From the NCBI RefSeq assembly GCF_003334315.1, contig NZ_QOWR01000001.1: a DNA stretch of 64,000 bases; one strand, 5' to 3'. Numbering within the stretch: the stretch's first letter is position 1; every line of letters begins with the position of its first letter. Made by a program: the position numbers and the translations under genes. The stretch comes from Escherichia coli. Its GTDB lineage: Bacteria > Pseudomonadota > Gammaproteobacteria > Enterobacterales > Enterobacteriaceae. The notes under the pieces were generated by a model. It was not told the origin of the DNA, searched no databases, and saw only the letters and a program-made list of their open reading frames with translations. Shown piece after piece: positions 1,007 to 2,605 of this stretch.

Positions 1007-2605
1007 ATGCGTAAAACAGTGGCTTTTGGCTTTGTCGGTACCGTACTGGATTATGCCGGGCGCGGCAGTCAGCGCTGGTCAAAATGGCGTCCGACACTCT
1101 GTTTATGCCAGCAAGAATCGTTGGTCATCGATCGACTGGAATTGTTGCACGACGCCCGCTCGCGCTCGCTATTTGAAACGCTTAAACGCGATATCGCCAG
1201 CGTTTCGCCAGAAACAGAAGTGGTGAGCGTTGAGATTGAACTGCATAACCCGTGGGATTTCGAAGAGGTCTACGCCTGCCTGCATGATTTCGCCCGTGGT
1301 TACGAGTTTCAGCCAGAAAAAGAAGACTATTTAATTCACATCACCACCGGTACCCACGTCGCGCAGATTTGCTGGTTTCTGCTGGCAGAAGCGCGTTACC
1401 TGCCCGCCCGGCTGATACAATCTTCACCTCCGCGCAAAAAAGAACAGCCGCGCGGCCCAGGTGAAGTAACGATTATCGATCTCGATTTAAGCCGTTATAA
1501 CGCCATCGCCAGCCGCTTTGCCGAGGAACGCCAGCAAACGCTTGATTTTCTTAAGTCCGGCATTGCCACGCGTAACCCCCACTTCAACCGCATGATTGAG
1601 CAGATCGAAAAAGTGGCGATCAAATCCCGCGCGCCGATTCTGCTTAACGGTCCAACCGGCGCGGGCAAGTCATTTCTGGCGCGACGCATCTTCGAGTTAA
1701 AACAGGCGCGGCATCAGTTTAGCGGCGCGTTTGTGGAAGTGAACTGCGCCACCCTGCGCGGCGATACCGCCATGTCGACGCTGTTTGGTCATGTAAAAGG
1801 CGCGTTTACCGGGGCGCGGGAATCTCGTGAAGGTTTATTACGCAGCGCCAACGGCGGAATGTTGTTTCTTGATGAGATTGGCGAACTGGGCGCAGACGAA
1901 CAAGCAATGCTGCTAAAAGCCATTGAAGAGAAAACCTTTTACCCGTTTGGCAGCGATCGCCAGGTGAGCAGTGATTTTCAGCTTATCGCCGGAACGGTGC
2001 GCGATTTGCGCCAGCTGGTTGCCGAAGGCAAATTCCGCGAAGATCTGTACGCGCGGATCAATCTCTGGACCTTCACCCTGCCGGGGCTACGCCAGCGCCA
2101 GGAAGATATTGAACCTAACCTGGATTATGAAGTGGAGCGCCACGCCTCACTCACCGGCGACAGCGTGCGTTTTAACACCGAAGCGCGGCGTGCCTGGTTG
2201 GCTTTTGCGACCTCTCCCCAGGCAACATGGCGCGGTAACTTTCGCGAACTTTCTGCCAGCGTCACGCGGATGGCCACCTTTGCCACTAGCGGACGCATCA
2301 CTCTGGACGTGGTTGAAGATGAGATAAACCGTCTGCGCTATAACTGGCAGGAGAGCCGCCCCTCCGCGCTTACGGCGTTGCTGGGCGCAGAGGCAGAAAA
2401 CATCGATCTCTTCGACCGTATGCAACTGGAACACGTTATCGCTATCTGCCGCCAGGCAAAGTCGCTTTCCGCAGCCGGACGCCAGCTTTTTGACGTTTCG
2501 CGCCAGGGCAAAGCCAGCGTCAATGACGCGGATCGGCTACGCAAATACCTGGCGCGTTTTGGTCTGACGTGGGAAGCCGTGCAGGATCAGCACAGCTCCA
2601 GTTGA
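1007..2605 (+). CDS. rtcR: sigma54-dependent transcriptional activator RtcR (AAA+ domain with Walker A GPTGAGKS and GAFTGA-like loop)
   Basis: 532-aa ORF; ATG at 1007; recognised as RtcR; divergent from rtcB. Confidence 0.93.

Follow-up and report, generated by a model that had tools for sequence, protein, structure and literature searches.

A 19-nucleotide convergent coding overlap between rtcR and glpR in Escherichia coli, very probably an incidental outcome of stop-codon geometry

The genes rtcR and glpR converge in the 64,000-nt stretch of Escherichia coli chromosomal DNA analysed here (the window) and share their last codons. This is a real, ordinary convergent coding overlap, already known and present in the reference annotation. 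We consider it very probable that the arrangement is incidental and selectively near-neutral, a tail-to-tail overlap arising from stop-codon geometry. In the mechanism that we propose, GlpR would need its QLELC C terminus, and glpR would thereby fix the shared bases. Because Escherichia glpR ends in TGA, the rtcR codon facing this stop would read CAG and RtcR would be extended by five residues, QHSSS; the run-on would halt at the next antisense stop, a TGA supplied by glpR codons 247 and 248. To judge from protein comparisons, these residues lie in a non-conserved tail and are probably functionless. As rtcR and glpR abut, neither gene has an intergenic intrinsic terminator. Transcripts of the glpR strand would enter the rtcR 3′ end in antisense orientation and, going by published data for MG1655, be stopped by Rho a few hundred nucleotides in, such that Rho-dependent termination may replace the missing intergenic terminator. 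The features of the junction are listed in Table 1.

Table 1 Features at and around the rtcR–glpR junction (window positions)
Feature	Position	Strand	Description
rtcR CDS	1007–2605	+	532 aa/codons; sigma-54 enhancer-binding activator of rtcBA; ends at TGA 2603–2605, the first in-frame stop
glpR CDS	2587–3345	−	252 aa/codons; DeoR-family repressor of the glp regulon; ends at TGA (2587–2589 in reverse complement), the first stop in frame
rtcR/glpR shared stretch	2587–2605	both	exactly 19 nt, TCAGCACAGCTCCAGTTGA; read from the sequence
Shared stretch, rtcR content	2587–2605	+	last base of the D527 codon, Q528-H-S-S-S532, RtcR stop
Shared stretch, glpR content	2587–2605	−	last base of the I247 codon, Q248-L-E-L-C252, GlpR stop
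'Switch' codon CAG (RtcR Q528)	2588–2590	+	opposite the final base of glpR Cys252 and the first two stop bases
Perfect 9-bp inverted repeat CGCGCCAGG/CCTGGCGCG	2499–2507/2548–2556		40-nt loop, within the rtcR 3′ coding region; TTTTGG after it on +; from a repeat search
Antisense stretch at the rtcR 3′ end	2253–2586	−	under glpR-strand transcripts before Rho termination (PMC7815308)
glpG and glpE	3362–4563	−	upstream genes of the glpEGR operon; from ORFs and the annotation of the near-identical E2865 locus

An earlier note on this DNA had described a 19-nt overlap of the two coding ends, and this is borne out by the first in-frame stops, by the Pfam identities of both products and by the RefSeq annotation. 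RtcR carries the domains RtcR/CARF (residues 2–185), Sigma54_activat (187–354) and AAA_lid (362–443), and GlpR carries HTH_DeoR (6–61) and DeoRC (74–231). An identical 19-nt overlap is annotated in E2865, in K-12 MG1655 (rtcR at 3558268..3559866, glpR at 3559848..3560605) and in divergent strains. The glpR gene is intact in the studied DNA and is a frameshifted pseudogene in MG1655. An 801-nt stretch around the junction has matches in 5426/5426 complete E. coli genomes, with at least 80% of it covered in 5423, and a 73-nt stretch centred on the overlap is matched without gaps in 5424 of the 5426. An annotation or sequencing artefact, with one of the genes truly shorter, has next to no chance of being the explanation: each stop is the first in frame, the junction is gap-free in nearly all of these complete genomes, and both products are well-studied proteins with domain architectures confirmed by Pfam.

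The comparison across taxa shows how the stop codons set the length of the overlap. A scan with GlpR, taking one genome per species, gave 80 Enterobacteriaceae loci; rtcR adjoins glpR in 7 of these species, and malT faces glpR elsewhere. The overlap is 19 nt, with an RtcR tail ending in QHSSS, in three Escherichia species, Klebsiella oxytoca and K. spallanzanii. It is 4 nt (TTAG) in Superficieibacter electus, where RtcR ends in VKEMAN, and 35 nt in Intestinirhabdus alba, where a tail shorter by 7 nt shifts the frame and RtcR ends in ISTAPAEYGDR. Across the E. coli overlap, the two frames have their third codon positions at the same bases. When the glpR stop is TAA or TAG, the rtcR codon at the switch position is itself a stop (TAG or TAA) and the overlap measures 4 nt; when the glpR stop is TGA, this codon is CAG. 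The TGA that ends rtcR is antisense to glpR codons 247 (xxT) and 248 (CAx), and all taxa with 19 nt have a glpR stop TGA together with ATT or CTT, then CAA or CAG, at codons 247 and 248. In S. electus, glpR TGT TAG lies opposite rtcR TAA, and a decayed rtcR remnant in MAG UBA5654 appears, from our reading of the alignment, to be in the 4-nt state, with glpR TAA opposite TAG. The homologous rtcR codon is therefore TAA or TAG in the 4-nt state versus CAG in the 19-nt state, as expected if the longer overlap originated in a stop-codon change. On these codons, a single transition, silent for glpR, would interconvert the two states. Every lineage that has the pair overlaps and none has a spacer, an observation from a small sample that sits less easily with a neutral origin.

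To obtain a neutral expectation for the length, the 34 long ORFs of the window were used as proxy genes and read on the opposite strand in the frame corresponding to that of rtcR. This antisense frame has stops at 3.7% per codon; once the facing codon is open, the first stop comes after a median of 26 codons, and at least 5 codons are read in 91% of runs. The 5-codon run-on of RtcR is short, since the median run in the antisense frame is 26 codons. Thus, the overlap is not beyond chance, and its length is within the neutral expectation. The window holds a second convergent overlap, of 14 nt, between yhhA (+, 28904–29344) and ugpQ (−, 29331–30074), and in the near-identical strain E2865, an overlap is seen in 2 of the 7 convergent pairs within the annotated 50 kb. 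In E. coli as a whole, 58 convergent CDS overlaps have been counted (Lillo & Krakauer 2007, PMC2174442). The modal convergent overlaps in the literature are the four-base sequences CTAA, TTAA, CTAG and TTAG, and longer ones are ascribed there to stop-codon mutation, in PMC2268670 among others.

Which of the two genes dictates the shared bases can be read from the conservation of the proteins. The QLELC C terminus of GlpR is invariant in 80/80 Enterobacteriaceae species; in two Pseudocitrobacter species, the glpR ORF extends two codons past it. By contrast with this invariant end, the homology found with RtcR as query mostly stops at residues 520–528 and in no case extends to 532 (phmmer, 150 representatives, drawn from 1.84 billion representative proteins). 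In the 76 RtcR representatives in which the motif FGLxWxxV was located, the tail after it is 0–34 residues long (median 6), with unrelated sequences; in E. coli RtcR it has 7 residues, QDQHSSS. Because the GlpR end is invariant and the RtcR tail is not conserved, we assign the shared bases to glpR. Among solved structures the sole GlpR relative is DeoR (7l6l), aligned over residues 69–239, and structures are uninformative on the last 13 GlpR residues because this alignment stops at 239.

Within Escherichia and the K. oxytoca group, the 19 nt hardly vary: position 2602 recurrently shows a T/C change that is synonymous in both frames, and in a single strain, NCTC11151, an A>T change at 2600 is non-synonymous in both. 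Such constancy might mean that the QHSSS tail is functional, that selection on RtcR maintains the overlap and that the 19 nt are constrained in both frames; Escherichia and the K. oxytoca group have the same QHSSS while RtcR as a whole is ~83% identical, and the doubly synonymous sites of the overlap are mostly fixed. We regard a functional tail as extremely unlikely. An invariant GlpR QLELC combined with common codon choice would give the same identity, the RtcR tails of S. electus and I. alba are unrelated to it, and more distant RtcR relatives end anywhere from 0 to 34 residues past the last conserved motif with no sequence in common. The synonymous sites of glpR offer an observation of their own. 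All rtcR-adjacent taxa have CTG-GAG-CTG at glpR codons 249–251, whereas the same codons vary synonymously where rtcR is not adjacent (TTA in 22/73, GAA in 18/73 and TTG in 20/73). The retention of CTG-GAG-CTG beside rtcR speaks against a neutral reading and could hint at a constraint from the rtcR frame, in a comparison of about four independent lineages that is confounded by codon usage. We make no claim of constraint on these sites, because the lineages number only about four and their codon usage differs.

The earlier note had further held that the overlap leaves no room for terminators on either strand. The spacer is indeed nonexistent, and a promoter and terminator scan of positions 1800–3500 found nothing at the junction: no intrinsic terminator was called on either strand between 2450 and 2750, and a GC-rich hairpin with a U-tract just past the stop codon is absent from both strands over the same interval. 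In species without rtcR, the glpR–malT spacer carries hairpin or REP-like elements, some of these species having a textbook hairpin followed by a T-run. The lack of a spacer does not imply that termination is compromised, however, because the terminators of overlapping genes sit within the coding sequence of the partner, and a Rho region on the minus strand is located about 330 nt inside rtcR. Of the 58 convergent overlaps of E. coli, 19 have been reported to have a predicted rho-independent terminator for a single partner, and 2 to have such terminators for both (PMC2174442).

The Rho termination region is an entry at MG1655 3559514, on the minus strand and antisense to rtcR (Adams et al. 2021, PMC7815308, Supplementary file 2), with a Rho score of 8.9 and p = 2.7e-27. 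DirectRNA-seq reads in the 800 nt upstream and the 800 nt downstream number 154 and 29 without bicyclomycin (BCM), and 153 and 256 with it (PMC7815308). Using an MG1655-to-window offset of 3557261, derived from the RefSeq coordinates, this region falls at ~2253 in the window, or 334 nt beyond the stop of glpR, at a resolution made coarse by the 800-nt windows. The drop in coverage is thus sensitive to bicyclomycin in the published table, the strain being MG1655, in which glpR is a pseudogene. Because the frameshift leaves the RNA untranslated, the Rho site may be shifted in that strain; that the Rho data come from a strain with a frameshifted glpR is a point to be held against the neutral reading. 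Regions antisense to a gene are the largest class of Rho regions (51.5%), and the authors state that Rho requires more than 50 nt of untranslated RNA, which is why Rho regions seldom lie close behind stop codons (PMC7815308).

The published MG1655 BCM data show RNA of the minus strand over the rtcR 3′ end, limited by Rho. The literature treats glpEGR as an operon, and its transcripts are the likely source of the read-through past glpR; we infer that the RNA antisense to rtcR is this read-through and not the product of an antisense promoter. The rtcR transcripts presumably end in a similar way inside glpR. On the minus strand, a scan for rut-like skew found positions 2614–2485 to be weakly C-rich, with a C/G ratio of only 1.1–1.4. 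The Term-seq tables of Adams 2021 (PMC7815308) list no curated 3′ end at MG1655 3559500–3560099, and the SMRT-Cappable-seq supplements mention neither rtcR nor glpR.

A cryptic structured element within the coding sequence might instead terminate or stabilize the transcripts, either as an attenuator of rtcR or as a protector of the glpEGR mRNA 3′ end. The candidates are the 9-bp repeat at 2499–2556 with its TTTTGG on the plus strand, and a hairpin on the minus strand that has the glpR stop codon in its loop. The minus-strand RNA at 2480–2640 folds with z = −3.6, none of 200 shuffles folding as well, and the repeat contributes to this fold; on the plus strand, the perfect repeat is followed by a T-run. 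Against this, the plus-strand fold of the junction is unremarkable (z = −0.55), the repeat was not picked up by the terminator scan, and it lies upstream of the rtcR stop with no U-tract after it on the minus strand. By our estimate, about 0.2 inverted repeats of 9 bp within 80 nt would be expected by chance in a 600-nt region, and the repeat is probably incidental. In a consensus fold computed from eight orthologous junctions, the covariation term is +0.11 and just one pair shows a compensatory change, and the fold differs from the single-sequence structure; the 9-bp stem is only partly kept, and interrupted, in Klebsiella. A search of Rfam with positions 1–6000, on both strands and at E-values up to 1, returned no match. 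With no covariation in the eight-species consensus, a different structure there and an interrupted stem in Klebsiella, a conserved RNA element at the junction was rejected. Together with the missing curated Term-seq 3′ end, these results make a role for a structured element very unlikely. That the minus-strand RNA of E. coli folds better than its shuffles is a further point against the neutral reading; we take this fold, like the repeat, to be incidental.

The earlier note had also proposed that transcription converging into the partner's 3′ end could cause interference or antisense effects between the two regulators. The BCM data agree with the first half of this proposal for one strand, as glpR-strand RNA does enter the rtcR 3′ end (PMC7815308); interference or antisense regulation between rtcR and glpR is conceivable but has no support. 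On such a reading, the pair would be a functional convergent excludon, in which an RNA-repair activator and a glycerol repressor antagonize each other through RNA polymerase collision, RNase III cleavage of the duplex or both. The transcripts must share at least 19 nt, the glpR-strand RNA covers ~330 nt of rtcR in antisense and extends well beyond this on inhibition of Rho (PMC7815308), short intergenic distances are typical of excludon pairs (PMC12288877), and the genes overlap in all four lineages that have the pair. However, neither the gene names nor the b-numbers appear in the ExcludonFinder main text, including its Table 1, which deals with 165 convergent E. coli excludons (PMC12288877), and the synteny is not conserved: adjacency is found in the 7 species of 80 given above and is missing from most Enterobacteriaceae, where malT lies opposite glpR. 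Moreover, the E. coli strains JJ1886 and CMZE027 have lost most of the rtc locus and retain a 399-nt rtcR 3′ stub with the overlap.

Transcription of both genes is probably low, and RNA polymerase collisions should therefore be rare. The known control of RtcR is post-translational, through tRNA fragments that bind its CARF domain (PMC7790460). Among publications naming both genes, or rtcR together with 'antisense', which are represented mostly by titles and abstracts, none was found to describe rtcR–glpR cross-talk, and literature searches likewise gave nothing on anticorrelated expression of the pair or RNase III processing of its duplex. We consider a functional excludon unlikely, and any mutual interference would be expected to be small. 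A narrower possibility, to which we give a very low probability, is a conditional antisense brake on RtcR, exerted by glpEGR transcripts that read through into the 3′ end of rtcR and are normally capped there by Rho. If there were such a brake, compromised Rho or increased glpEGR transcription would lead to antisense RNA over rtcR and to less RtcR, and in lineages retaining the overlap the capacity for RNA repair would be tied to carbon source or Rho status.

An incidental, near-neutral overlap thus remains our preferred explanation, and its biological weight is small: it is annotated, is one of dozens of such overlaps in E. coli and bears the marks of neutral origin. The junction is useful as a worked example of how one base, which exchanges one stop for another in one gene, adds five residues to the protein of its partner. 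It also calls for care in genome engineering. Recoding the glpR stop from TGA to TAA would truncate RtcR, and a deletion of rtcR that runs through its stop would cost glpR its own stop and the five codons before it.

Among known systems, the convergent excludons of ExcludonFinder (PMC12288877) resemble the rtcR–glpR pair in having no spacer and in that transcription of one strand invades the coding sequence of the partner. They differ in how that transcription ends: the rtcR/glpR read-through is limited by Rho, whereas overlapping terminators are predicted for 146 of the 165 excludons listed. The likeness to the Rho-limited 3′ read-through and antisense transcripts of PMC7815308 (citing Peters et al. 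2012) is complete, in that a bicyclomycin-sensitive region lies antisense to a gene several hundred nucleotides past the upstream stop codon; there is no difference, as the region antisense to rtcR is an entry in that data set. The yhhA/ugpQ overlap likewise joins convergent core genes of E. coli, appears in the RefSeq annotation and has no function ascribed to it; it differs in the genes involved and in its length of 14 nt versus 19 nt. Finally, the pair shares with the short convergent overlaps of Lillo & Krakauer (PMC2174442) 3′ ends that overlap by a few codons, the 4-nt TTAG state being a canonical tetramer, an origin by stop-codon change followed by read-through to the next antisense stop, and the placement of any terminators within the coding sequence of the partner. 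It departs from this class in nothing essential, its particular detail being that a stop-to-stop base change, silent for one gene, opens the stop of the other.

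In three comparison loci, the spacer between glpR and malT contains degenerate leftovers of the 3' end of rtcR; these loci are from the metagenome-assembled genome UBA5654, Klebsiella michiganensis and Klebsiella grimontii (see the table). These remnants suggest that the rtc module formerly lay between glpR and malT and was lost repeatedly, the part abutting glpR being left behind each time. Within E. coli, strains CMZE027 (L005, 1098-1884) and JJ1886 (L089, an ST131 strain) carry an internal deletion, as a result of which the final 399 nt of rtcR are fused to a 3' piece of rtcA. 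Both lack rtcB and most of rtcR and keep an intact glpR, together with the rtcR stub that overlaps it. A large deletion in E. coli NCTC11023 (L006, 2247-2965) removes malT, rtcBA, rtcR and the 3' end of glpR, leaving a C-terminally truncated glpR of 155 codons fused to a remnant annotated as glycogen/starch/alpha-glucan phosphorylase, which is presumably malP because malQ adjoins it. NCTC11023 is among the few complete genomes without the rtcR-glpR junction.

Coordinates of the repeat, the predicted fold, the rtcR remnants and the second overlapping gene pair
Feature	Locus	Coordinates	Strand	Description
Inverted repeat CGCGCCAGG/CCTGGCGCG	Window	2499-2507 / 2548-2556		Perfect, 9 bp; 40-nt loop; within rtcR 3' coding region
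Predicted RNA fold	Window	2480-2640	-	Spans the junction
rtcR 3' remnant	L028 (UBA5654)	about 4757-4960		At least 150 nt
rtcR 3' remnant	L054 (K. michiganensis)	about 4757-4960		About 40 nt
rtcR 3' remnant	L068 (K. grimontii)	about 4757-4960		About 40 nt
yhhA	Window	28904-29344	+	Partner of ugpQ in 14-nt coding overlap
ugpQ	Window	29331-30074	-	Partner of yhhA in 14-nt coding overlap

On the glpR side of the junction, the gene is intact in the window (2587-3345, 252 amino acids), whereas in K-12 MG1655 (L002, 4849-5606) it is a frameshifted pseudogene, in which a single frame covers only residues 52-252 by tblastn. Published MG1655 transcript data on the glpR locus may therefore not transfer exactly to the window. 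The C terminus of GlpR is extended in only two of the 80 Enterobacteriaceae species: Pseudocitrobacter faecalis (L034) and Pseudocitrobacter vendiensis (L036) have CGG at the usual position of the stop codon (about 4757-4765), and the reading frame is two codons longer, ending in …QLELCRE* and …QLELCRA*, respectively.

The inverted repeat is followed on the plus strand by TTTTGG. Minus-strand RNA across the junction has a fold z-score of -3.6, and the glpR stop codon sits in a hairpin loop of the predicted structure. Neither the repeat nor the fold is conserved outside Escherichia, whether in Klebsiella or in further genera, and covariation is absent.

The window holds a second convergent coding overlap, in which yhhA and ugpQ share 14 nt (29331-29344); it is also present in the RefSeq annotation of E. 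coli E2865 (L087). The offset between window and E2865 coordinates shifts by about 3.2 kb on passing from rtcR to ugpQ. The window thus comes from a strain other than E2865, from which it differs by an insertion or deletion at some point in this interval, between glpD and ugpQ. E2865 has four extra genes between glpD and glgP, one of them for a PstS-family protein.
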